This document shows positions 1,746-38,992 of a DNA stretch of 39,199 bases, piece after piece (the stretch's first letter is position 1; each line of letters starts with the position of its first letter). The stretch lies in NCBI GenBank assembly GCA_016840095.1, contig JAEOSZ010000007.1:1-39199 (forward strand). The letters run 5' to 3'. Under the pieces are notes generated by a model, which saw only the letters and a list, made by a program, of their open reading frames with translations, was not told the origin of the DNA and searched no databases. Position numbers and translations under genes: made by a program. Source of the stretch: Candidatus Heimdallarchaeota archaeon. GTDB lineage: Archaea; Asgardarchaeota; Heimdallarchaeia; Heimdallarchaeales; Heimdallarchaeaceae.

Positions 1746-3983
1746 ATGAGTAAGAAAAGGTTAATCAGTTTAATACTTATGATATCTCTTTTCATCCAGG
1801 TTTCAATGATAAGTTATTACAAGGTGGATGCTTTAGATGTAAAAGCTACTGACATTGAAACCGAACTGAACAATGGAATCCCAGTCAAAGAATGGACATT
1901 TATGGTCTACTTAGATGGAGATAACAACCTTGAAGCAAATGCCATTGATGATATCAATGAGATGGAAGCTGCAGGAGGATCTACAGCTGATGTCAACATT
2001 ATAGTTTTAGTTGACTTATGCGGTCATGAGACCAGCGCAAACTCAGAATATGGCATAACTTGGGATGATGCAAGATATTATTACATTGAAGCTGGTTCTG
2101 ATCCTGATGTAATTGAATCTACTCTTATCAGTGTAGAAGGAGAAATCAATATGGGGAGAGGGGATACACTCACTAGTTTCATTGATTTTGTCACAACTAA
2201 CTATCCTGCAAAAAGATATGGTCTTAGTTTATGGGATCATGGGGGAGGTTTTGAAGGAATTTGTTGGGATGATGATAATAATGGAGATAGTATTGGAATA
2301 AACGAGCTTCAAGAAGCACTAGTAGGATATCATTTTGATTTTCTAGGAATGGATGCGTGTATAATGGGACAATATGAAATCGTTTACGAAGTCAGTCCTT
2401 ATGCTGACTATGTTGGTGTCTCTCTGTTAAATGAACCAGGAGACGGTTGGGATTATGAAAACTTCTTACCTTTTCTTTTAGCTGATCCCTATATGACTGG
2501 AGATATTTTAGGAGAACACATCTGTACAACTTATGTGGACCAATATAGTTCAGATGTCACATTTGGTATTTGGAATACTACAGACATGACGACTGTTCAG
2601 ACAGAAATAGATGATTTAGCTACTATTCTAATGGATAATTTAGATACTTATGGATCTGAAATTGCTCTAGCTAGAGAGCTTGCTCCCTCAGATGATTATC
2701 CTAGCTATGGATCAGACATACATGAATTTGTTATAAATCTACAAAGTAGTACCTCAGTAGATATTGTTAATCAAGCTGCTGATGTTCAAGCTGCTCTTGA
2801 AGACATCAATATTTTGAGCTACTCATCTTTTACAGTTCATCCTTTTGGACTCTTGATTTATTTTCCTACAATTCCAAATGAAGATTATAATCAGTTTTAT
2901 GCTAATAGTGATCAACAATATGTCAATTATCAATCTAATCCATATTATGGGTTTGATTTCGTAATGAATAGCAGTTGGGAGGATTTCATCTATGCTTGGC
3001 GAGAGACCCTTCCAGACATTCTTTCTAAGATAGCTGATGGAGAAGAACTTGAGATTACTACTGGGGACAATCAATATTTTGCTGTTGACCTTGTAGCTGG
3101 TGATAGATTATATGCTGAGCTTCATTCCAATTCACAGGAAAAGATCAATCTTGAAGTATATGATCCCCTAGGAAGGATAGCTGATAGTGATTATACTATA
3201 TTCAATCCAAAAATCGCAGAGTATACCACTTCAGAAAATTGCTCAGTCTTCATAGGAGTTTTAAATGAGTTTGGCAGTCCTTGCGATTACAACTTATCAG
3301 TTATGATTGACAGCAGACCCTATATAGCAGACATTGGCATAAGTCCAGAAGAGCCTATTTTCGGTGAGGATGTGGAAATTCTGTGTGAGATTATAGATGG
3401 ACATGGGTTAGATGAAGTCATCTTATCGTATAGTACAGATGGTAGCTGGACTGATGTGGCAATGACTGAGGTTTCAGAGGGATGGTATTCTTACACAATA
3501 CTAATTGATGAATCAACTCAACAGATTCAATATCGAATAGAAGCTACTGATAATTTGGATAATACTATGATTTCTTCAACAAAAGTCACTTATTTCCATG
3601 AAGGAAATGCACCAGAGCTAAAGAGTGTAAAATTCGATCCTAAGAAACCAAAAAGTGGAGAAGAAGTAACACTAACTGTTGTAGTAACAGACTCATCTGG
3701 TATAGATAAAGTCATTCTCTCCTATGATTTTGGGGAAGGAAAAAACAATATTACAATTAACACCAACAATCTTGATGAGTATGTATTCACTCTAAACCTA
3801 CCAGAAAATGGAACTGCCGTTACATATCAATTATATGTCTTCGACACATGGGGAAACTGCTTAGTTACTGGAGAGGTTATAAAAGAACTAGATGTAGGAC
3901 CACTACCAATCTCACCTCTAATGTCGATCCTAGCTATAGGAATTTTGGCTTTAGCTTATCTAAGAATGAGTAGAAGAAAGTGA
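1746..3983 (+). CDS. Secreted clostripain-family (C11) cysteine peptidase with C-terminal Ig-like domains and TM anchor
   Basis: Signal peptide; KEWTFMVYLDGDNNLE; catalytic WDHGGG and GMDACIMG; two beta-rich repeats (DGHGLDEVILSY / DSSGIDKVILSY); C-terminal TM + RMSRRK. Confidence 0.9.
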   Translation: MSKKRLISLILMISLFIQVSMISYYKVDALDVKATDIETELNNGIPVKEWTFMVYLDGDNNLEANAIDDINEMEAAGGSTADVNIIVLVDLCGHETSANSEYGITWDDARYYYIEAGSDPDVIESTLISVEGEINMGRGDTLTSFIDFVTTNYPAKRYGLSLWDHGGGFEGICWDDDNNGDSIGINELQEALVGYHFDFLGMDACIMGQYEIVYEVSPYADYVGVSLLNEPGDGWDYENFLPFLLADPYMTGDILGEHICTTYVDQYSSDVTFGIWNTTDMTTVQTEIDDLATILMDNLDTYGSEIALARELAPSDDYPSYGSDIHEFVINLQSSTSVDIVNQAADVQAALEDINILSYSSFTVHPFGLLIYFPTIPNEDYNQFYANSDQQYVNYQSNPYYGFDFVMNSSWEDFIYAWRETLPDILSKIADGEELEITTGDNQYFAVDLVAGDRLYAELHSNSQEKINLEVYDPLGRIADSDYTIFNPKIAEYTTSENCSVFIGVLNEFGSPCDYNLSVMIDSRPYIADIGISPEEPIFGEDVEILCEIIDGHGLDEVILSYSTDGSWTDVAMTEVSEGWYSYTILIDESTQQIQYRIEATDNLDNTMISSTKVTYFHEGNAPELKSVKFDPKKPKSGEEVTLTVVVTDSSGIDKVILSYDFGEGKNNITINTNNLDEYVFTLNLPENGTAVTYQLYVFDTWGNCLVTGEVIKELDVGPLPISPLMSILAIGILALAYLRMSRRK

Positions 3984-7882: not shown

Positions 7883-9178
7883 TTACTCCTTTAGATTTTC
7901 TGCTAATAATGATCTGAATCTAAATTGAGCATTTTCAGCTATTCTTTTCATTTTCTGCGCGTTATGTCTAGATTCAAGGTAGTGAAAATGAAAACTCATC
8001 TTACCGCGCATTGTATAAACTAAAACTGTAATTGCACCTATTGCGAAAGAAACAGCTCCAGAAAATGAATCAATAGAAAATTTCTCAGAATCAAGCTTAA
8101 TTCCTAATCTATCTAAGGAACCTAAATTTGTAATCGCAAAAGCTTCCTGATTACCAGCTATTTCAATGAACATAGGACCAAACTCGTTGAGAATATTGAG
8201 AGGTACTCCAGTATGAACCATTTTATGTATTTTGTAGACTTTTTTGTCTCGGAGTTTCAAGTACAAACTACTCTGATATCTTTTCGCATTTTTCCAGAAA
8301 TCCTTTCTTTCTTTATACTTCTTTCTTACTACAGTACCTCCTGCATAAAGCCCAAATGATTCACCTATCGGATAAGCAAGCCTATCTCTAAGGTTTACTG
8401 GATTATTTATTGTAGAGATATGTGGGAGAAACAATGTACAAACTGCACTATGAACCGCTAAATTATTCTTCTTGCATAACTTAAGAAATAGATTTGTTTC
8501 TTCTTCACTCAACTCCCATTTGATTAGCTTTAGATCATCCTTTTTGTAATCATCAGCATGAATAACATCCGTTTTTCTTTTACCAAATTTTAGGAAATAG
8601 TAGATTCTCATTAAGAAGAACATCACTTTAGTTCGAAACATATTTTTGGGAATCCTTTTTCTGACTTCACTAGGAAATATGTCTTCTTGTTTAATAGGCG
8701 TGAGTAAAGGGGAGGGTTCAGAATCTGGATAATTTAAGAAATGTATAAGATCTCTTGTCAAAAAAACCATTGATAAACCATCAGTTATTGTATGTTGAGC
8801 ACAAAGGATTAAATCAGCCTGCTCTTTTGAATGTAGTAATGTTGTCCTGAATAAGGGCAATTGTTTCTTCTCATACTCGAAGGGAGTCTCTAGATTTTCA
8901 AGAAAGAGAGAATTTGTTCTTGAATCATTTTCATATTTTGTAATTGTTAGTGGAATCTTCTTGACTCCTTCAGATGTAAACCAATAAGCATCATTTTCAT
9001 CAGCTTCTATTCTTACTTTCAGTAAAGGATGTCGGTTTTGAGCTTTATTCAGAGCTTCCTTAAGTTCTTCTTCAGTAATCTTACCTTTGATTCTTAAAAC
9101 AATAACTAAATTGTAAGGTTGACTTATTGAAAAATTCAGATACTCTAAATCATTTAGTTTTCTTCTCATAAGAATCAT
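7883..9178 (-). CDS. Condensation-domain / CoA-dependent acyltransferase (alcohol acetyltransferase, PapA5-like)
   Basis: RHPLLKVRI, catalytic QHTITDG (HxxxDG), PVNLRDRL and ITNLG. Confidence 0.8.
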   Translation of the reverse strand: MILMRRKLNDLEYLNFSISQPYNLVIVLRIKGKITEEELKEALNKAQNRHPLLKVRIEADENDAYWFTSEGVKKIPLTITKYENDSRTNSLFLENLETPFEYEKKQLPLFRTTLLHSKEQADLILCAQHTITDGLSMVFLTRDLIHFLNYPDSEPSPLLTPIKQEDIFPSEVRKRIPKNMFRTKVMFFLMRIYYFLKFGKRKTDVIHADDYKKDDLKLIKWELSEEETNLFLKLCKKNNLAVHSAVCTLFLPHISTINNPVNLRDRLAYPIGESFGLYAGGTVVRKKYKERKDFWKNAKRYQSSLYLKLRDKKVYKIHKMVHTGVPLNILNEFGPMFIEIAGNQEAFAITNLGSLDRLGIKLDSEKFSIDSFSGAVSFAIGAITVLVYTMRGKMSFHFHYLESRHNAQKMKRIAENAQFRFRSLLAENLKE

Positions 9179-29482: not shown

Positions 29483-30523
29483 ATGCCAGAATATTGGCAA
29501 TTAAAAAAAATCAAAAACAAGGAGTGGAGAAATAGAATAGCCCAAAATTTACTAAATTTGAGGATGCAATTACAAGAGCTAATACCTTGTAGAACTGTAA
29601 CAGAAACCCTCTTACTTGCTACTTGGAATATTCGTGATTTTGGAGCTAGAAGATTTAATCCAAGAAAAAGAACAAAAGAATCTCTCTTTTACATTGCTGA
29701 AATAATCTCAAAGTTTGATATTGTTGCAGTTCAAGAAGTTAATGAAAATTTAGATCAATTTCAAGATTTAATGGATATTCTTGGTTATCCGTGGACTTAC
29801 ATTTCTACTGATACTACCGAAGGTCCAGGTGGTAATCAAGAAAGAATGGCTTTCATTTATGACAGATCAAAAGTTAGATTCAGGAATATCGCAGGAGAGA
29901 TAGTTCTTCCGAAAACTCAACTCATTCAAAGAGAAAAACAATTTGCTCGAACACCGTTTTTAGTTTCATTGCAATCTGGTTGGTTTAAGTTCAATCTTTG
30001 CACAGTACACTTGTATTATGGCAGTGATAGTGGCATTGGCATGAAACGCAGAATAGCTGAGATCAAAGCAATTACCAAAGCACTTGCTAAGAAAGCGAAA
30101 AAGGACAGAGAGAGCTATATTGTTTTAGGAGATTTCAACATTATTGGACCTAAAGATGAAACCATGGAAGCTTTATTGACTAATGGATTCATGATACCAG
30201 ATAGCATTTGGGACACAGCTTCAACTCCTTTTAGTGCAAAGCATTATGATCAGATAGCTTTTAGAGCAGAAGAAGGGAAGGTACAATTTGGTAATCGAGG
30301 AGGAATTCTGAACTTCTTTGAAACAGTTTTCAGAGATGACGAAGCAGAATTGTACATTAACAAATATGACAGAGATTTTGAAAAACATGGAGATCCAGAT
30401 GATGCTGATAGAAAAGGGAATTACTATCTCAAAAGATGGAGAACCTGGCAAATGTCTGATCATTTACCACTGTGGATAGAACTAGAAATTGATTTCACAG
30501 ATGAGTATTTAGAATCACTGTAA
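29483..30523 (+). CDS. Endonuclease/exonuclease/phosphatase (DNase I-like) family protein
   Basis: ATWNI, AVQEV, GNQERMAFIYD, FARTPF, VHLYYG, LGDFNI, YDQI and SDHLP. Confidence 0.92.
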   Translation: MPEYWQLKKIKNKEWRNRIAQNLLNLRMQLQELIPCRTVTETLLLATWNIRDFGARRFNPRKRTKESLFYIAEIISKFDIVAVQEVNENLDQFQDLMDILGYPWTYISTDTTEGPGGNQERMAFIYDRSKVRFRNIAGEIVLPKTQLIQREKQFARTPFLVSLQSGWFKFNLCTVHLYYGSDSGIGMKRRIAEIKAITKALAKKAKKDRESYIVLGDFNIIGPKDETMEALLTNGFMIPDSIWDTASTPFSAKHYDQIAFRAEEGKVQFGNRGGILNFFETVFRDDEAELYINKYDRDFEKHGDPDDADRKGNYYLKRWRTWQMSDHLPLWIELEIDFTDEYLESL

Positions 30524-30548: not shown

Positions 30549-31121
30549 ATGTTAAGAGAAAGAAGAAAACGATTGATTAAAAAAATGAAAAATCGAAGGA
30601 TATTTTTCTATATCATTATTATTTTACTCATTATTACAGCAACAATATTGATGATTGTCTTTGGAACACCGAATTTAGAACCTGAAGAATCGGACTTATT
30701 AGCAATAGCAGGAGTTGTAATTTTACCTTTAGTAATATCTGAGTCGATAAAACAAGGTTTTTCATATCTGAAAGAACACAGAAAGAGTGCAGAAACTGAA
30801 GAAAAAATCAAAGAAGAATTTAAACATAATCTTGTTCGTTTCATATATCATTGGGATTTAGGTACTCTACGACCTGCATTTTTTGTACTCCATGAAGAAA
30901 TTGTAAAATTACTTGAGAAAAATATGATTATTATCTTGAAAGAGGTTAATGAGATTCAATTTTCCAAAATAGAGGAACTGTACAAAATTGCACTTGAGTT
31001 CAAAATTCCTGATGAAGTAAGTAAAAACAATTATAAAAACAGATTTAGTAATAAATCAGATTTGAAGAAATTCAATCTTTTTGTAACTTCATGCAGAGAA
31101 TTAATAGAATCATGGGAATAG
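30549..31121 (+). CDS. Hypothetical 2-TM membrane protein
   Basis: GAGGTGA SD. Two hydrophobic helices then a helical soluble part. Possible C-terminal frameshift (see findings). Confidence 0.65.
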   Translation: MLRERRKRLIKKMKNRRIFFYIIIILLIITATILMIVFGTPNLEPEESDLLAIAGVVILPLVISESIKQGFSYLKEHRKSAETEEKIKEEFKHNLVRFIYHWDLGTLRPAFFVLHEEIVKLLEKNMIIILKEVNEIQFSKIEELYKIALEFKIPDEVSKNNYKNRFSNKSDLKKFNLFVTSCRELIESWE

Positions 31122-31439: not shown

Positions 31440-32507
31440 ATGAATCAGAAAAAAAACAGTTTTCAGAGTACTATAGATAATTTTACAAAAAAACAAACAA
31501 TAACACCTAAAAGAATCATTATCAATCCTAAAAATATTGAAACAGGAGACTTAATGAGAGAAGAATTTGATCCCAAAAAACATTATTTTCAAATAAGTAT
31601 AAATGATATTTATCTCAAGTACTCTCGTAGATGGTTTAGAGAATATGTACCTTTAGTTATAGTTATCTCTGAGTTTAAATTCAAAGGAAAACAAGTGATA
31701 ATTCCTTTCATAACAGGTCCTACTAATTTTAAGGATTTAGTAGGTGAAGACATAACTGAAGGAATGAAGTTCTCCAATACACAAGTCGTTAGTTTACGAC
31801 CATATAATGGAGGACGTATAAAATTAACTGTATTATTATGTAAAGTAGTTAAAAGAGATTACTTAAAGGAAATACTTGGATTTTTAGAAAAGACTTCAGA
31901 TTTAGTAAGTTTAGCAGGAATTAGCTCCTATTTAGAAGTTGCACAAGCAATGCTAGAAGGAGTTCAATCAGTTCTGGATTCTGGAAAAGCATCACCTATA
32001 GCAAGTATTCATGAAGAATTTGATAGCGCTACAGGAGTAGACTTTTTACCTAATTATTTTGCTTTACTAGAACCTATTGAGACCAAAATAAATAAAGAAA
32101 AACTCTATGTGAGAGATTCTGATCTTGTCTATGGTGAGAATAAGGAAAAAGCAAAACCTTTCAGAGAAACAAGTTTTGTTCTTTATAGTATTACTCAAAC
32201 AGATAAAAGAGAAGATTTAGATTCGCTACCATTCTACCCACTTTATGAAAAAACAAAGCAATATGCAATGATTCCTATTCAGAATGTATGGGATCTTACG
32301 AAATTTTACTTATCTGATCTTCAAAGGACTATACTTCTTAGCCCAAATCTAACCCCCAATCAACGAATTTCCTTAGCTGATGATATTAAGGATGAGATTT
32401 ATACGATACATAAAAAATATGCTGGAAAAAGTGATTTGGGACCCGAAGCAAGAAAATTCAAACCAGATGACATAGAGAAGAGAATTCTTGAGATTCTCAA
32501 ACTATAA
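31440..32507 (+). CDS. Hypothetical protein, first gene of the CHAT/SctV-C operon
   Basis: 355-aa ORF with a beta-rich N-half, a central amphipathic helical hairpin and a helical C-terminus. Family not recognised. Confidence 0.8.
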   Translation: MNQKKNSFQSTIDNFTKKQTITPKRIIINPKNIETGDLMREEFDPKKHYFQISINDIYLKYSRRWFREYVPLVIVISEFKFKGKQVIIPFITGPTNFKDLVGEDITEGMKFSNTQVVSLRPYNGGRIKLTVLLCKVVKRDYLKEILGFLEKTSDLVSLAGISSYLEVAQAMLEGVQSVLDSGKASPIASIHEEFDSATGVDFLPNYFALLEPIETKINKEKLYVRDSDLVYGENKEKAKPFRETSFVLYSITQTDKREDLDSLPFYPLYEKTKQYAMIPIQNVWDLTKFYLSDLQRTILLSPNLTPNQRISLADDIKDEIYTIHKKYAGKSDLGPEARKFKPDDIEKRILEILKL

Positions 32508-32527
32508 GTTAAAGAAGATGGAAAATT

Positions 32528-34027
32528 ATGGAAAGACCTGAATATAAGGATTTCAAAGTATTAGTAAAAAATCCATCAACCATTAATTATGTTACAACAG
32601 ATGATAACAATTACATAAGAGATATTCAAAAAGATAATCTTAGGGAAGGCGTAATTAGATTTTTCATAAAAATGCTAGAAAATGACAGAGTAACGACTCG
32701 AGATGAATTTAGAATATTCGGTTCATTTTTGTTTCTGAGATTGTTTACTGATGAATTTAAAAAAAGGTTTCACGACGAATATTGTAAATTTGAGAAACAA
32801 AAATCTTCTCTTTTTAGATTAACTTTAGAATTTGATACTCATGCAAGAGATTTAGCTGAATGGCCTTGGGAGTATATCTACTATCCTGGAGAACTAGATG
32901 GAAAAAGAGGTTTTTTTATTGCAACAGAAACAGAATTAGTATTAACACGCAGAATACCAGAAGTACGCGTAGATGAAGACGAGGAAATTGATAAGAAGGA
33001 CATAAATATATTAGTAGCTTTATCACAACCAGGTACTCTTGGAATAGTAATGCCAAAACCTGTTCTTGAAGCTATAGAAGATCTTCAACAAGCATATCCA
33101 GAGAGAGTAAAATTTGAAAGTATAACTGATCTTACAAAGAAGAAACTCAAAAAGAAGATTGACGAATTTAAACCACAAATTTTGCACTATATAGGTCATG
33201 GTCAATATACTGAAAAAGAAGGTTTCTTAGCAGGAAGTGAGGATGAAGAAACCGAAGAAGTTGATTGGATTGTTGATGATGATCTTGCAGATTGTGTTAA
33301 AGCTAATCCACCAAATTTAGTAATATTACAGGCATGTGAAGGAGCTCATACTTCTGATTATGTATTCTACAAAGGTGTAGCACTTCAATTAATTCAAGCT
33401 GATGTTGCAGCTGTCATAGCCATGCAATACCCAATAATTAATGATATGGCAAATGAATTCTCACAAGAATTTTACAATGCTTTAAAGGAGAAGAAAGGTA
33501 TTGAGGAAGCTGTACAACAAGGTAGAAATAGTTTAGCATGGAAGAACAGAAGAAATTATAGTAGTCGTGATTTCGGAAGTCCCGTTGTATATATGCAATG
33601 CCCAGAAGGAATTTATTTTTTCACAAAAGACAAAGATGATACAGAAGAATTTGAGGTTCATGAAGTTCCGACTATTATGACTGGTAAAGTTGATTGTCCT
33701 TATAGTGGATGTCATGGAGAAGTAAGACGAGATGCACTAATCTGTACTGCGTGTAAACAACCTTTAGAGCAATGCCCAAATCCAAGCTGTAGAAGAGTTA
33801 TTGAGAAAGGAGGTACTTGTGATAGATGTGAACCAACTACATTTGAAATGGCTAAGGAAAAAGCTGCAGTTACTGAAGATGTTTACTCAAGAGAGACATT
33901 AGATTCTTTAGTTAGAATTGGTGAAAATATCAAGGAACCTGAGAGTAAAAAGCACAAGATACCTATGAAACCCAAGGATACAAGTACTAAAAACACGAAG
34001 GAATCAGAGGATTCAGTATCTAATTGA
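32528..34027 (+). CDS. CHAT-domain (caspase-like, clan CD) cysteine protease with C-terminal double zinc ribbon
   Basis: LAEWPWEYIY, ILHYIGHG (H224), LVILQACEG (C270), AVIAMQYPI..A..FS..FY..L and AV..GR. C-terminal CPYSGC..CTAC..CPNPSC..CDRC. Confidence 0.9.
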   Translation: MERPEYKDFKVLVKNPSTINYVTTDDNNYIRDIQKDNLREGVIRFFIKMLENDRVTTRDEFRIFGSFLFLRLFTDEFKKRFHDEYCKFEKQKSSLFRLTLEFDTHARDLAEWPWEYIYYPGELDGKRGFFIATETELVLTRRIPEVRVDEDEEIDKKDINILVALSQPGTLGIVMPKPVLEAIEDLQQAYPERVKFESITDLTKKKLKKKIDEFKPQILHYIGHGQYTEKEGFLAGSEDEETEEVDWIVDDDLADCVKANPPNLVILQACEGAHTSDYVFYKGVALQLIQADVAAVIAMQYPIINDMANEFSQEFYNALKEKKGIEEAVQQGRNSLAWKNRRNYSSRDFGSPVVYMQCPEGIYFFTKDKDDTEEFEVHEVPTIMTGKVDCPYSGCHGEVRRDALICTACKQPLEQCPNPSCRRVIEKGGTCDRCEPTTFEMAKEKAAVTEDVYSRETLDSLVRIGENIKEPESKKHKIPMKPKDTSTKNTKESEDSVSN

Positions 34028-34036
34028 GGTTTTAGC

Positions 34037-36832
34037 ATGAAGATTGGAAAAGAATTTATAAATATCTTCGCTGAAACTTATCACGAAGCTGCACTATCTA
34101 ATTCAAATATGAGAAACGTAACAGAAGCTTTAGAGACAATTCGTTCAGTCATTGCAAGTGAGTCTAGCTATTTAGAGGTTTGGGATGAAATAGATACTCA
34201 ATTAGGACGAGCGGAAATTGTACGCTTCCTTCCTGTTTTGATTGCATTTCGAGACAAATTTATAGACTATATACTCAAAAGAGAAATCACTAGACTATAT
34301 GAGGAATTCAATAAAGACAAACACAAAGGTTGGCAAATATGGATAGAAGATTATGTTGCTGCACTAAATAATTTTAGAACATCAATTCTTATTCCTCTGA
34401 TAACAGAGAAATTCCCTTTTGCATCACCTTATAAAAAGGTAATTGAAAAAATCAGAGAACTAACACCATATGTAGTACAAAATAGATGGCCAGAAACATT
34501 TGATTTATATGTAATGTTAATGGAGACAGAATATATCTCTAAGGAACAAAAAGCCCTGTTGTATTGTATGGCAGGGAGAATCGAATTATATCAATACATG
34601 AATCCTAAAAATGCATTGGATTATTTCCAGAAAGCTCAAGAACTATCACCTAATAATGGAAGAGTTATTGCAGGTATGGGAGAATACTTGTTACAACAAA
34701 ACCAGATTACAGAAGCTAAACAAATCTTTGAGAAAGCAATGGAATTAGATCCAGATTTTGAAGGATATTCTGCAATAGGAGATTGTTATCTAAAATTGGA
34801 GGATTATAAAGCAGCAGAAGCATGGTATCATGATGCAATAATAGAAAAAAGTGGTTGGAAATCAGGATATATCAGTTTAATACGACTTTATGGAGAACCT
34901 CATCTCTTTTCTAGTCATAAACGTCGATTACAGAATCTAATTGTAAGATCAAATGCAGTTTATCCAGATACTGAGTTCTACACATATATTGACGTTGGTT
35001 ATATTTACCAAAAAAATAAGATGTACAAGGAAGCTCAGGAATGGTACGATAAAGCCCTAGAATTTGAAATTGGTAAGTATCATGGACATATTAGCAAGGG
35101 TTATGCATATCTTGAAGAAGGAGATTATGTTAAAGCTTCAGAAATTTTTGAATACGTAATTAAGTTTGCACCAGAATCTTTGGATGGTTATTGGGGAAAA
35201 GCTATAATTCATGACAGAGAAGAACAATGGGCAGAAGCACTAAAATATTATGAAAAGAGTTATGAAGTTCGACCACAATGGAAAAAAATAATTAATGAAA
35301 GAATAAATGTAACAAAATGGAATCTTGGAAAACAGAAAGAAGCAATTGAGGGTACTTTCAAATTGCTTGAAGAGGATAAAACTGATGAAAATATAACAAG
35401 CAGATTGCATAATTTTGCATGCGAATTATACCAAGATTTTAATCAAACAGAACAAGCAGTCAGCATTTTTTCTAGGCTAAGAACATTAAAAGGAAGTGAC
35501 TATGAGGCAGAATATCACAATCAAATTGGAAATTTAAGATACTGGAATAGTGAATATAAAGACGCTATAAAAGAGTATCAGAAAGCAATTAAGGCAGATT
35601 CGAGTAAAGCAGTATATTTTTCTAACCTCTCGGGAGCATATAGAGAATATGATGAATCTGATAAAGAGATAAACTTGCTTGATGATGCAATTTCTACGCT
35701 CGAAAAAGCAATTCATCTTAAACCTGATGAATATGCTTACATCACTAAGCTTGAAGAATTGAATAGAAAACGAGATAAGAAAGCAAATTATGGTGAAGAT
35801 ATTCTCACAATGTATCAAGTAGTTACTCCTATAGCTGTAGAAGTTGCAGCAAATCTTATTCCTTACATCGAAGATATCAAAGCAGGCACTTTGAGAGAAG
35901 AACTCTCTACAACGATAGATATTATAAGAAAAAGAATTCTAGGTGAATTTGGCATAAAAGTTCCAGGAATTAGATTTAGGGGAAATGAAACAGATCTTAA
36001 AGATGGAACTTATATTATCTTATTGAATGAAACACCTTTAGAATCAAATGTGGTTTCACCTGAAAGAAAATTATTTACAGGAAGTATAGATGAAATTGAA
36101 CAACTAGGAATTAAAAGAGAAGAAACGTTTAATCCAGTAACAGGAGAAAATGCTTTTTGGGTTTGGAAGGAAGATTTTGAAAGACTATCTTCAGTAGCAG
36201 ACAAATGCTTGAATTTTACTGAATATTTTGTTAATCACATTGAATCTGTTCTTCGAGATAATTTGCAGAATTTCTTTGGATATCAAGAAACAATGAATTT
36301 GCTAGAAGATTCAGAAGAGGAATTTTTCCTTCAATTTGATAACTCAGATGATAAATTCATTGCTTTAGTCAAGGTACTCAAATCTCTTGTATCAGATAAA
36401 ATATCAATTCAACCGTTCAACGCTATATACGAAAGTTTTACTACTCTATATGAAGAAGGGAAAAACACCACTGAAATAGTTGAGAGATTAAGATCATTAC
36501 CTTCCATACAACCTGTACTTCCAGGTAACAATGCTAAGTTTTCATTTTACGAACTAGGTGAAGATTTTGAAGAAATGATTCAAAAGTCGATTCAGAGGAA
36601 ATATGAAAATCCAATTTTACTTCTAGAACCAGAAGATTGTCAAGAAGCTTTAACGTCAATCAGAAGAGGAGTCTATTCTTATAACAAAACTACTTTAGTT
36701 GTAAAAAATGCAGAAATACGACCATTTGTGCATAAACTAATCGAGTTAGAATTCCCAAACATAAATGTTTTATCTTATCAAGAATTATCACCTGAATTTC
36801 AAAATAAAATCTTAGGAGTGATTGAATTATGA
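34037..36832 (+). CDS. TPR-repeat protein fused to an SctV/FlhA (FHIPEP) cytoplasmic domain
   Basis: About 10 TPRs (e.g. GRVIAGMGEYLLQQNQITEAKQIFEKAMELDPD). From about 35820: VTPIAVEV, EFGIKVPGIRFRGNETDL..YIILLNE, FFGYQET, LKSLVSDKISI and IRPFVHKLIELEFPNINVLSYQEL. No TM helices. Confidence 0.88.
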   Translation: MKIGKEFINIFAETYHEAALSNSNMRNVTEALETIRSVIASESSYLEVWDEIDTQLGRAEIVRFLPVLIAFRDKFIDYILKREITRLYEEFNKDKHKGWQIWIEDYVAALNNFRTSILIPLITEKFPFASPYKKVIEKIRELTPYVVQNRWPETFDLYVMLMETEYISKEQKALLYCMAGRIELYQYMNPKNALDYFQKAQELSPNNGRVIAGMGEYLLQQNQITEAKQIFEKAMELDPDFEGYSAIGDCYLKLEDYKAAEAWYHDAIIEKSGWKSGYISLIRLYGEPHLFSSHKRRLQNLIVRSNAVYPDTEFYTYIDVGYIYQKNKMYKEAQEWYDKALEFEIGKYHGHISKGYAYLEEGDYVKASEIFEYVIKFAPESLDGYWGKAIIHDREEQWAEALKYYEKSYEVRPQWKKIINERINVTKWNLGKQKEAIEGTFKLLEEDKTDENITSRLHNFACELYQDFNQTEQAVSIFSRLRTLKGSDYEAEYHNQIGNLRYWNSEYKDAIKEYQKAIKADSSKAVYFSNLSGAYREYDESDKEINLLDDAISTLEKAIHLKPDEYAYITKLEELNRKRDKKANYGEDILTMYQVVTPIAVEVAANLIPYIEDIKAGTLREELSTTIDIIRKRILGEFGIKVPGIRFRGNETDLKDGTYIILLNETPLESNVVSPERKLFTGSIDEIEQLGIKREETFNPVTGENAFWVWKEDFERLSSVADKCLNFTEYFVNHIESVLRDNLQNFFGYQETMNLLEDSEEEFFLQFDNSDDKFIALVKVLKSLVSDKISIQPFNAIYESFTTLYEEGKNTTEIVERLRSLPSIQPVLPGNNAKFSFYELGEDFEEMIQKSIQRKYENPILLLEPEDCQEALTSIRRGVYSYNKTTLVVKNAEIRPFVHKLIELEFPNINVLSYQELSPEFQNKILGVIEL

Positions 36833-36878
36833 TTAGAAGAATGAAAATCAACAGAGATGAACTGATGGTGAGTATAAG

Positions 36879-38510
36879 ATGACACTAGATTCTTCCCAAT
36901 TAGGAGATATTTTGATAGAAATAGAACTTGATCCATCTGTATTTCATCTAGCAAAAACTAGAGATGAGAAAAATAGAGATTTAAATGAATACTTACTTAA
37001 ATATTCAACTGACATCCTAGCAGATTTAAAGATACCAGCAAATATTACTCTCAATTTATCCGAAGAGGTGAATTTAAAGAATCAAATAATGAACGACTTT
37101 CAAGTTAAGATAAATGAAGAAGTATGTAGACTACCATTTCTACACCGTTCTATAGAACATCTGGATGCTCAAACGCTAGCTAGAGATATACTTATTGGTA
37201 TTTATAAGAATCTTGAATTATTTTTGTCAGAATCATTAGTGAAGAGCATTAAAGAAAAATGGACAGCAGAGAGTAACAGCAAATTATTAAGTAATTTATC
37301 TTTGGAAGATTTCCATAGCTTATTGAAAGAACTAGTTTCTCGGTACTTCAGAATCAATAAAATAAAAGATACTATTATTAAAACAAATGAAAGCGGGTTA
37401 GAAGAATTGAACAAAAGTTGGATTCTTGAAGAGTCAACCGCTGGATGGGATGTACATAAAGTTAAGCTATTTCTAAACAATCTAGATGAATTTGATTCTA
37501 TTAAGCTAAGTTCAGAAGGAACGAATTTTCCAGTAGAATCCATAGAAGATATGTTCATTATGATGAGAGATGGACTTTTTTATGAACTCGGAATTTTGCT
37601 TCCTCAAGTGAAATTTATACAAGATAAAAGTCTTGATGACAATGAATTCAGAGTTCAAATAAACGATCTAAGATTTTATCCTAAATGTAGAATTCTGAGA
37701 AATTACTTTCTTGTGAATGATACAGTTGATAGGTTAGCACTACTCAATATAGAAGGAAAACACATCTTAAATCCAGCAAATGATAGTGAATGTGCTATAG
37801 TTAAAAATGAGAACAATAATGAAGAATTATGCATGGAAGCTGGTTTAACAACTTGGAAACCTGAGGGATTTGTAGTACTAAGTGTCTCAGCTCTTGTTAG
37901 AAAAAATGCAGCAGTCTTCATGAATAAAAAAATAGTTGAACACATGCTGATGCAGCTAAATCTAGTATTTCCAGATCTTATTGATGCAGTAAAGAGTCGC
38001 TACAGTAATGATGAACTTACTGCAATACTTCGTGGATTATTAAAAGAAGAAATCTCTATTAGAAATCTTCGTACTATATTAGAAGCATTGCTTGATTCAG
38101 AACATCACAAAGAAAAACCTCTGAATATTGAAAACACAGTAGATTCTATTAGAATTGGTTTGAAACGATATATTACAAATAAATATACAAGATCATCGAA
38201 CACATTAGTCACTTATTTACTAGAGAAAGAATTGGAAGAACTAATCCTTTCAATTGATAGAAATTCGTTAAGAGTAAGAAATAAGAATCATGATCTTTTA
38301 ATTAAATCATTATATGCTGAATATGGTAAAGCTCCTCCCACTGCACAAACACCCATTATTCTAACTACTTATGAAGTTCGAAACTATTTTAGAAAATTAA
38401 TTGCGAAGGAATTTCCATGGGTAGCTGTATTAAGTTATCAGGAATTATCTCCTGATATGAATATACAGCCAATTGGTAAGATATCTAAATATGAGGAGGA
38501 AATAAGGTGA
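36879..38510 (+). CDS. Soluble SctV/FlhA (FHIPEP) cytoplasmic-domain protein
   Basis: MRDGLFYELGILLPQV, FPDLI, ILRGLLKEEISIRNLRTILE, LKRYI, YLL and PIILTTYEVRNYFRKLIAKEFPWVAVLSYQELSPDMNIQPIGKI, all hallmark SctV-C motifs. No N-terminal TM domain. GGTGAG SD. Confidence 0.9.
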   Translation: MTLDSSQLGDILIEIELDPSVFHLAKTRDEKNRDLNEYLLKYSTDILADLKIPANITLNLSEEVNLKNQIMNDFQVKINEEVCRLPFLHRSIEHLDAQTLARDILIGIYKNLELFLSESLVKSIKEKWTAESNSKLLSNLSLEDFHSLLKELVSRYFRINKIKDTIIKTNESGLEELNKSWILEESTAGWDVHKVKLFLNNLDEFDSIKLSSEGTNFPVESIEDMFIMMRDGLFYELGILLPQVKFIQDKSLDDNEFRVQINDLRFYPKCRILRNYFLVNDTVDRLALLNIEGKHILNPANDSECAIVKNENNNEELCMEAGLTTWKPEGFVVLSVSALVRKNAAVFMNKKIVEHMLMQLNLVFPDLIDAVKSRYSNDELTAILRGLLKEEISIRNLRTILEALLDSEHHKEKPLNIENTVDSIRIGLKRYITNKYTRSSNTLVTYLLEKELEELILSIDRNSLRVRNKNHDLLIKSLYAEYGKAPPTAQTPIILTTYEVRNYFRKLIAKEFPWVAVLSYQELSPDMNIQPIGKISKYEEEIR

Positions 38511-38992
38511 TAAATGTGATTGAAGAAACAACTGCTAAATATCTAGAGTATATGATTCATAGTTTTATGAATGGTTTAGAAACTTTACTAGAAATTGATG
38601 GTTTAAGTGATGAAGAATTGGAGACAATCTATGCACTAGGGTATAATTACTTTACTTATGGAAAATATGAGGCAGCAAGAGATATTTTTGAGCTACTAAC
38701 TGCATATGCTCCTTATACTCCACATTATTGGCGTGCCTTAGGAGCAGTAAATCAACAATTAGAAGATTACAAACCTTCGATTGAAGCATATGATATGGCA
38801 ATAATTATGGATGAAAAGGATGTTGTTAGTTATGTCTATCGAGGAGAAACACAGATTCTATCAGGCAATATTGAAGAGGGGTTAAGAGATTTAGATACAG
38901 TCATAAAAATCGGATCATTTTATCCAGAATGGCAATCCTGGGTTGAGAGAGCAACATTACTACTCAAAATTCTTAAACCAAAACAACCCTAA
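38507..38992 (+). CDS. SycD/LcrH (class II T3SS translocator chaperone)-like TPR protein
   Basis: 161 aa, acidic. GLSDEELETIYALGYNYFTYGKYEAARDIFELL...YWRALGAVNQQLEDY..SIEAY..A, a 3-TPR layout typical of SycD/LcrH/IpgC. GTGA overlap with the upstream stop, and GAGGAGGA SD. Confidence 0.8.
   Translation: MINVIEETTAKYLEYMIHSFMNGLETLLEIDGLSDEELETIYALGYNYFTYGKYEAARDIFELLTAYAPYTPHYWRALGAVNQQLEDYKPSIEAYDMAIIMDEKDVVSYVYRGETQILSGNIEEGLRDLDTVIKIGSFYPEWQSWVERATLLLKILKPKQP

Follow-up and report, generated by a model that had tools for sequence, protein, structure and literature searches.

Soluble, paired SctV cytoplasmic domains in a candidate protease-effector cassette of a Heimdallarchaeota archaeon

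To our knowledge, SctV/FlhA domains occur solely as components of membrane secretion machines, and we know of no archaeon with a machine of this type. Here we describe a five-gene operon (g1 to g5) of Candidatus Heimdallarchaeota archaeon, a member of the Heimdallarchaeaceae whose genome encodes a true actin, at positions 31440-38992 of contig JAEOSZ010000007.1, in which two soluble proteins carry the cytoplasmic domain of SctV (SctV-C) beside a caspase-like CHAT protease. The window, i.e. the whole stretch of 39,199 nucleotides (nt) that was analyzed, is the entire contig (C16), which ends 207 nt past g5. We favor, with moderate confidence, the view that the operon is a protease-triggered cell-death or abortive-defense cassette on a split export-gate heterodimer of type III secretion system (T3SS) kind. 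The proposed sensor scaffold is new, whereas the output logic, a protease cutting an effector, is already known.

Several described systems share parts with this locus. The four-subdomain fold (SD1 to SD4) of the SctV/FlhA C-domain (CdsV 6WA6; YscV 7QIJ/7ALW) and its SD4 cleft residues recur in g3 and g4. YscV rings are stabilized by the salt bridges E431-R560, D511-R592, E517-R563, and R519-E531 (PMC9163089), and SsaV nonamers depend on equivalent ones (PMC8635156). In YscV:YscX:YscY, a helix occupies the SD4-SD4 cleft and a TPR domain sits on SD2/SD4, an arrangement to which our model of g5 is similar. In M. xanthus, a needleless T3SS (T3SS*) is used for prey lysis (PMC12075869). Bacterial gasdermin operons with CHAT or caspase proteases have the same effector-protease-repeat protein order as the cassette, and in Runella the CHAT protease cleaves its gasdermin at Leu-Gly, freeing 21 residues (10.1101/2021.06.07.447441). 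Craspase (TPR-CHAT/Csx29), SAVED-CHAT, and EAD-linked conflict systems (PMC7159879) share with it a caspase-like dyad, TPR regulation, and EAD2/EAD11 domains near related loci; unlike Craspase and SAVED-CHAT, the cassette has no CRISPR effector or SAVED domain. There is no mention of FlhA or SctV in PMC7159879. Searches of the literature outside subscription journals for FHIPEP/SctV/FlhA together with caspase, gasdermin, TPR, defense, Asgard, decoy, or conflict systems returned no such module, titles and abstracts on FHIPEP report no soluble form, and a search for C2 with CHAT gave nothing on it.

The five genes are co-oriented. Open reading frame coordinates bear out the spacing given in a preliminary description of this DNA, with intergenic gaps of 20, 9, and 46 nt (g1-g2, g2-g3, and g3-g4) and a 4-nt GTGA overlap of g4 and g5:

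g1, 31440-32507, + strand: 355 amino acids (aa), candidate effector and protease substrate
g2, 32528-34027, + strand: 499 aa, CHAT caspase-like protease, double Zn-ribbon at its C terminus
g3, 34037-36832, + strand: 931 aa, TPR array followed by SctV-C of type A
g4, 36879-38510, + strand: 543 aa, N-terminal domain followed by SctV-C of type B
g5, 38507-38992, + strand: 161 aa, GTG start, SycD/LcrH-like class II chaperone fold

None of the five proteins has a transmembrane (TM) segment (maximum 19-residue hydropathy ≤1.45); applied to canonical SctV, this test gives 5-8. Both g3 (residues 576-921, E 2e-42) and g4 (residues 222-527, E 1e-44) match FHIPEP above the Pfam cut-off, as had been proposed. 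The matches are confined to the cytoplasmic part (positions 311/353-656 of the 657 in the profile), which agrees with the earlier statement that neither protein has the multi-TM N-terminal domain. A profile search of the genome found no other FHIPEP match. FliP/SctR, FlhB/SctU, FliR/SctT, FliQ/SctS, and YscJ/FliF were not found either, in a genome that is 89% complete (and 7.8% contaminated), so that their absence is not absolute. SctN models gave only matches far under their cut-off, and the SctV TM domain used in tblastn matched neither the host genome nor any of 41 soluble loci (72 canonical loci were matched). Long-flank copies of the module (L122 and L142) likewise have no secretion genes. 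In the 89%-complete genome, the T3SS or flagellar locus or split SctV TM gene that would have counted against the preliminary description was not seen, and these results support the reuse of export-gate parts of bacterial origin without a secretion machine. Compared with canonical SctV, of which the nearest belongs to the Myxococcota needleless T3SS* lineage (PMC12075869), g3 and g4 have no TM domain, form two paralogs, and stand without the other T3SS genes; each also lacks most of one ring face and is fused to TPR/STAND modules or to an apparently decayed repeat.

The two paralogs are complementary. In g3, an N-terminal helical region and a TPR array (about 170-575) precede a type A domain, which has retained the acidic face of the ring (E665, E751) together with one flank of the SD4 cleft (about 851-904). 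In g4, the type B domain has retained the basic face (R395, R398, R430), SD2, and the opposite side of the cleft. The AlphaFold2 (AF2) model of g4 (pLDDT 89.5, pTM 0.90) has the SD1-SD4 fold fully kept (Foldseek against CdsV: E 4e-25, TM-score 0.81 by target). In the first 190 residues of g4, secondary-structure elements follow one another as in SD1+SD3, and the alignment of this region to the protein's own SD3 is weak (hhalign E 0.012, probability 3.6%). This domain looks like a decayed SD1+SD3 repeat, and it may cap the free ring face. Its conserved R/K161 was considered as the equivalent of YscV R560 and dropped, being one residue out of register.

We mapped the first three YscV bridges on an alignment of 32 type A, 42 type B, and 15 Myxococcota SctV sequences. 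All six positions are intact in 15/15 Myxococcota SctV. The E431 position is Glu in 32/32 type A proteins, and Arg is found at the R560 position in 4/32 type A versus 41/42 type B and at the R563 position in 3/32 versus 29/42. The R592 position is lost in type A (Pro in 18/32), as against Arg in 35/42 type B, and the D511 and E517 positions are lost in type B. The fourth bridge (R519-E531) is unconserved even in Myxococcota SctV. In the window, g3 has Q792, P822, and N795 at the R560, R592, and R563 positions, g4 has V346 and I352 at those of D511 and E517, and neither protein has both nonamer salt-bridge faces in one chain. Because the ring residues kept are mainly acidic in type A and mainly basic in type B, a homo-nonameric ring is unlikely and a heterodimer probable. 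From these alignments, g3-C and g4-C probably pair as a closed heterodimer in which one SD4-SD4 cleft is restored, a single A-B interface replacing nine identical ones.

The g4-side patch of this cleft is kept in type B (68%) versus type A (16%), and the g3-side patch in type A (62%) versus type B (20%); the patch columns were picked from a model that itself derives from these alignments, so these values are not independent support for it. Both cleft halves are about 62-68% identical to Myxococcota SctV, compared with 32-42% overall, and the same is true in loci without g5. Because the patch is kept also where g5 is missing, and five bacterial genomes with the SctV-C pair have no g5 ortholog, the SD4 cleft seems to be a conserved working site of which g5 is one ligand.

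The solved structures nearest to g5 are the translocator chaperones AcrH (E 2e-12), PcrH, and SycD, and hhalign gives probabilities of 97.6% for AcrH versus 2.9% for AscY. The SycD/LcrH-like label given earlier holds at the level of these comparisons; against the TIGR02552 LcrH/SycD model, g5 scores 102.7 bits (E 1e-29), just under the cut-off of 104.8. An assignment to SctY (AscY/YscY) was rejected on the low hhalign probability and on 22 bits against an NF052415 cut-off of 70. With class II chaperones (SycD/LcrH/PcrH/AcrH/IpgC), g5 shares a three-TPR fold and an N-terminal helix; unlike them, it has no translocator gene nearby and is predicted to bind the gate domain itself. No TM protein is encoded in the operon, and no hydrophobic translocator lies beside g5 orthologs in module loci. 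It belongs to a tight subfamily with a Myxococcota protein, annotated SycD/LcrH, to which g5 is 65-70% identical; an ortholog occurs in 1/5 Myxococcota-type genomes tested. The Myxococcota members are orphans beside glmS/glmU/rsmE, and one such highly conserved gene (L155:10001-10492) is not near any T3SS cluster.

In a three-chain model, the N-terminal helix of g5 (6-24) lies between SD4 of g4 and SD4 of g3, with the TPRs on g4 SD2. This site is the one used by YscX:YscY (PMC9163089) and likewise by SctO. The complex scores 0.68 versus 0.00 for the best control, a three-chain job with its own alignments being outside the calibration of the score, which excludes the g3-g4 contact. At least 75% of the contacts are common to the runs, and partner pLDDT is at least 80; the complex-score mark is reached by 58/80 solved pairs and 2/110 mismatched pairs. 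The equivalent of YscV R701 is retained in type B, as in YscV:YscX:YscY, and the residues R551 and R669, which neutralize the YscX C terminus, are mostly lost in type A. Unlike YscX:YscY, g5 combines helix and TPRs in one chain, the helix is N-terminal, and the protein is SycD-like, not SctY-like. At L142, which has long flanks, g5 occurs without g1 or a protease, and g1 occurs without g5 at L062, L069, L079, and L047. Because each is found without the other and g5 is modeled on g3/g4, its partner would be g3/g4 and not g1. The earlier suggestion that g5 may hold the 355-aa protein is therefore not supported, and g1 is better read, by analogy, as a protease substrate.

The protease assignment of g2 stands: it matches CHAT (PF12770, E 3e-17), is the only CHAT protein in the genome, and has the predicted dyad H224 (HYIGHG) and C270 (QACEG), with His in 10/10 covering aligned rows and Cys in 11/11. 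The Zn ribbon previously noted is a four-CxxC region at about 390-436, and this double ribbon may be a homotypic adaptor coupling protease to scaffold. Its location varies among related loci, from the CHAT C terminus to the N terminus of g3 (L047, L062, L057, L038) and the middle of g4 (L067:6218-8173).

The AF2 model of g1 (pLDDT 88.9) divides from N to C terminus as follows:

N terminus: amphipathic helix
46-255: C2-like β-sandwich
142-180, inserted in the sandwich: amphipathic hairpin
256-333: three-helix bundle
loop with Leu333-Gly334
344-354: C-terminal helix

The C2-like region aligns to the cPLA2 C2 domain (Z 7.3, under 8; 118 residues, root mean square deviation 3.5, no sequence match) and, by Foldseek, to the AIDA C2 domain (probability 0.97, E 4e-3), and several unrelated C2 domains match the same range. 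Matches of the helical bundle are generic and were set aside. The g1 family is unnamed and comprises 1172 clusters at 50% identity; g1 has no Pfam family, PADLOC match, or PDB sequence match, and its structure matches in the Atlas are unnamed clusters only. In every locus with visible context, g1 homologs precede a CHAT protein and a TPR protein. One homolog (L145:1188-4799) adjoins, in divergent orientation, a ternary conflict system of VMAP-C/AAA type. The family has a conserved SPDL motif, and at a set distance from it 69/131 members have Leu, the next residue being Gly/Ser/Ala in 100/131. A variable loop and a terminal helix follow (tail median 24 residues), and in g1 itself Leu333-Gly334 is 22 residues before the end. 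Because this Leu-Gly near the C terminus resembles the Runella gasdermin site, g1 is a likely protease substrate with a candidate cut after Leu333, and we infer by the same analogy that g2 carries out this proteolysis. The likeness to gasdermin operons, which lies in the neighboring caspase-like protease and in a loop with Leu-Gly that precedes a short peptide at the C terminus, is at motif level only, and a true gasdermin is encoded at one locus with the SctV-C pair (L051). In contrast to those operons, g1 is C2-like, the repeat protein is a separate chain with SctV-C, and a further SctV-C subunit and a chaperone are added.

In the cell-death or defense cassette that we favor, g3-C and g4-C would form a closed heterodimer with one chaperone/substrate-binding cleft instead of a nine-fold ring, and the N-terminal helix of g5 would fill this cleft as plug or adaptor, as modeled. 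A change in cleft occupant, or a ligand on the g3 TPRs, would be relayed to g2, which would cut g1 after Leu333 and release the 22-residue C-terminal helix. Freed g1 would then reach the membrane via its C2-like domain and amphipathic hairpin, and the cell would be killed or arrested. In these loci SctV/FlhA domains that lack the membrane part are reused as a soluble scaffold of two components, linked to caspase-like and other cell-death modules. If the model holds, it defines a new class of immune scaffold, a large new effector family (over 1000 clusters) with a precise candidate cleavage site, a caspase-like circuit in a Heimdallarchaeia lineage, and a small soluble model for class II-type chaperone docking on the export gate, which, if right, bears on T3SS substrate hierarchy and on the poorly understood Myxococcota T3SS*.

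Several points weigh against this reading. The C2 match is middling at the level of predicted structure. The hairpin is amphipathic and no clear TM hairpin (family median maximum hydropathy 1.16), and g1 was rejected as a gasdermin (0/131 family members match Bact_GSDM, hhalign gives 0.1% to the L051 gasdermin, and the predicted fold is C2-like). Leu at the candidate cut site is found in just 53% of the family. In type B, the E431 position is Asp in 29/42, so one acidic ring contact survives. To the limits of the g5 score given above is added that its pass may owe partly to the solved YscV:YscX:YscY structure (7QIJ). There are no known defense genes among the neighbors in the window, and PADLOC reports no system matching the g1-g5 set. 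Finally, the Lokiarchaeota copy L142 (g5-g3-g4) has no protease nearby, so proteolysis would not be the sole output.

SctV-C proteins without TM segments form a large family. Among the 41 soluble loci of our tree set, 31 have both paralogs, type A always ahead of type B and fused to it in 5, and most of those without both lie on short or broken contigs. The complete g1-g2-g3-g4-g5 order is also found in L061/L122 (Methanomicrobiales archaeon, contigs up to 1.5 Mb) and L067, g1-g2-g3-g4 is seen without g5, and partial copies bearing g5 occur in Hermod-, Thor-, and Lokiarchaeota. The expected recurrence of the gene set is thus seen, with the pair in at least 31 loci. The pair spans several bacterial phyla, methanogens, and Asgard archaea; all named g5-bearing module loci are archaeal, and related copies lie amid ANME-2 and Methanoperedens genes. 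The module is rare and patchy, being found in 1/61 relatives and 4/400 Asgard genomes. No relative was found on viral contigs, and the plasmid matches listed are canonical SctV/FlhA. Upstream partners vary, from CHAT to caspase C14 with EAD2, TIR with nSTAND, NACHT, and an HsdR-like helicase; in L051, EAD11, gasdermin, and caspase occupy the g1-g2 slots, which supports the suggested link to cell-death and defense effectors. Type A proteins carry or adjoin variable modules (TPR, STAND, NACHT, HsdR-like helicase, TIR, caspase, CHAT). A constant core with exchangeable outputs is the pattern of conflict systems.

Other arrangements were also seen. The order g5-g3-g4 is found at L142:9997-14163 and L059:211-4727, with a g3 that bears a hydrophobic segment at its N terminus and lacks a recognized TPR or enzyme domain. 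At L063:3157-9042, among ANME-2-like neighbors, a type A SctV-C with TPRs follows an HsdR-like helicase of type I restriction in one fused protein. Two pair loci (L051:11461-20200 and L052:28-1690) adjoin contractile injection system genes (eCIS core, CIS_TMP, sheath, tube), and a sheath-like gene, judged by eye only, lies near the pair at L065:1720-3294.

The same parts could instead make a regulatory proteolysis switch (HetF- or DdvA-like signaling, development, or stress) with no role in cell death or defense. CHAT proteases act in signaling too, g2 has a weak HetF match, L142 has no adjoining protease or toxin, and g1 shows no recognized toxic fold. The very patchy spread and the swappable conflict-type partners (gasdermin, EAD2/EAD11, TIR, nSTAND, NACHT, HsdR-like) argue against such a switch, which we consider unlikely, if the best placed of the alternatives. 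We give a little less credence to a large SctV-C ring, homo- or mixed, that clusters the protease while g5 keeps g1 soluble like a translocator. The fully kept fold of g4, the kinship of g5 with translocator chaperones, the amphipathic hairpin of g1, and the new contacts for higher oligomers that a decayed g4 repeat could provide fit a ring. The complementary loss of ring residues, the separate occurrence of g5 and g1, and the modeled position of g5 on g3/g4 speak against it, and the self-assembling homo-ring of the preliminary description is not supported, each paralog being without most of one ring face.

Among canonical proteins, those nearest to the pair are SctV from Myxococcota and from similar metagenome-assembled genomes (40-46% identity for g4-C, 31-38% for g3-C), and both paralogs of the early-branching pair L051 are 52% identical to Myxococcota-type SctV. 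In a quick maximum-likelihood tree with long outgroup branches, which omits duplicate loci and ten canonical SctV rows that were fragments, the soluble proteins form two groups. Type B has strong support and branches next to Myxococcota SctV; type A is placed near FlhA, possibly as an artifact. In the window, g3 and g4 share the same two nearest neighbors, which indicates that they were inherited together. By sequence comparison, the two stable paralogs, which remain adjacent or fused, seem to stem by duplication from a Myxococcota-like SctV without the membrane domain, a statement on closest relatives that names no donor or order of events. We see as improbable, about on a par with the ring, that the module is an integrated decoy, in which the g3/g4 cleft and g5 copy the gate cleft and chaperone of predatory Myxococcota, so that the cell would sense incoming cargo of T3SS* type, its chaperones, or a viral mimic of these, and would respond through caspase-like activation of a new C2-type membrane effector. 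It is hinted at because the cleft halves stay Myxococcota-like also without g5 and the five bacterial pair genomes have no g5 ortholog; if true, bacteria, methanogens, and Asgard archaea would share an inflammasome-like receptor against predators, assembled from secretion parts of the attacker.

A decayed T3SS remnant or a mis-binned bacterial contig is barely credible: the contamination, the nearby contig end, and some split or frameshifted bacterial copies (L018, L040, L047, L048) allow it, but the flanking genes have counterparts in 23/24 same-genus genomes (best matches 66-88% nucleotide identity), operon GC (31.8% versus 33.2%) and tetranucleotide distance (75th percentile) are ordinary for the genome, the operon stretch is present in two marine-sediment DNA runs, both from one study, the two soluble groups are coherent across several phyla, and recurrence with intact frames and conserved order, including on long archaeal contigs, largely refutes it.

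No RNA run is among the sequencing runs listed as containing the operon stretch, and a scan for sigma-70 promoters and terminators stayed at chance level with a model unsuited to archaea. The gene at 30549-31121 (+), 318 nt upstream of g1, encodes a protein of 190 aa that has TM segments at its N terminus and matches SLATT weakly (NF033634, E 5e-5); no homolog was found in other module loci, and it is probably outside the cassette. The EEP/MnuA-like nuclease gene before it (29483-30523, +), with a same-genus ortholog at 75% nucleotide identity, belongs to the flank, outside the module. Elsewhere in the host genome, two pairs of rotary-ATPase A/B-like subunit genes (C95:27347-30215 and C104:28857-31915) have a second operon and contamination as candidate readings. 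The contig also encodes a clostripain-family (C11) protease (1746-3983, +) and a stand-alone condensation-domain protein (7883-9178, −).

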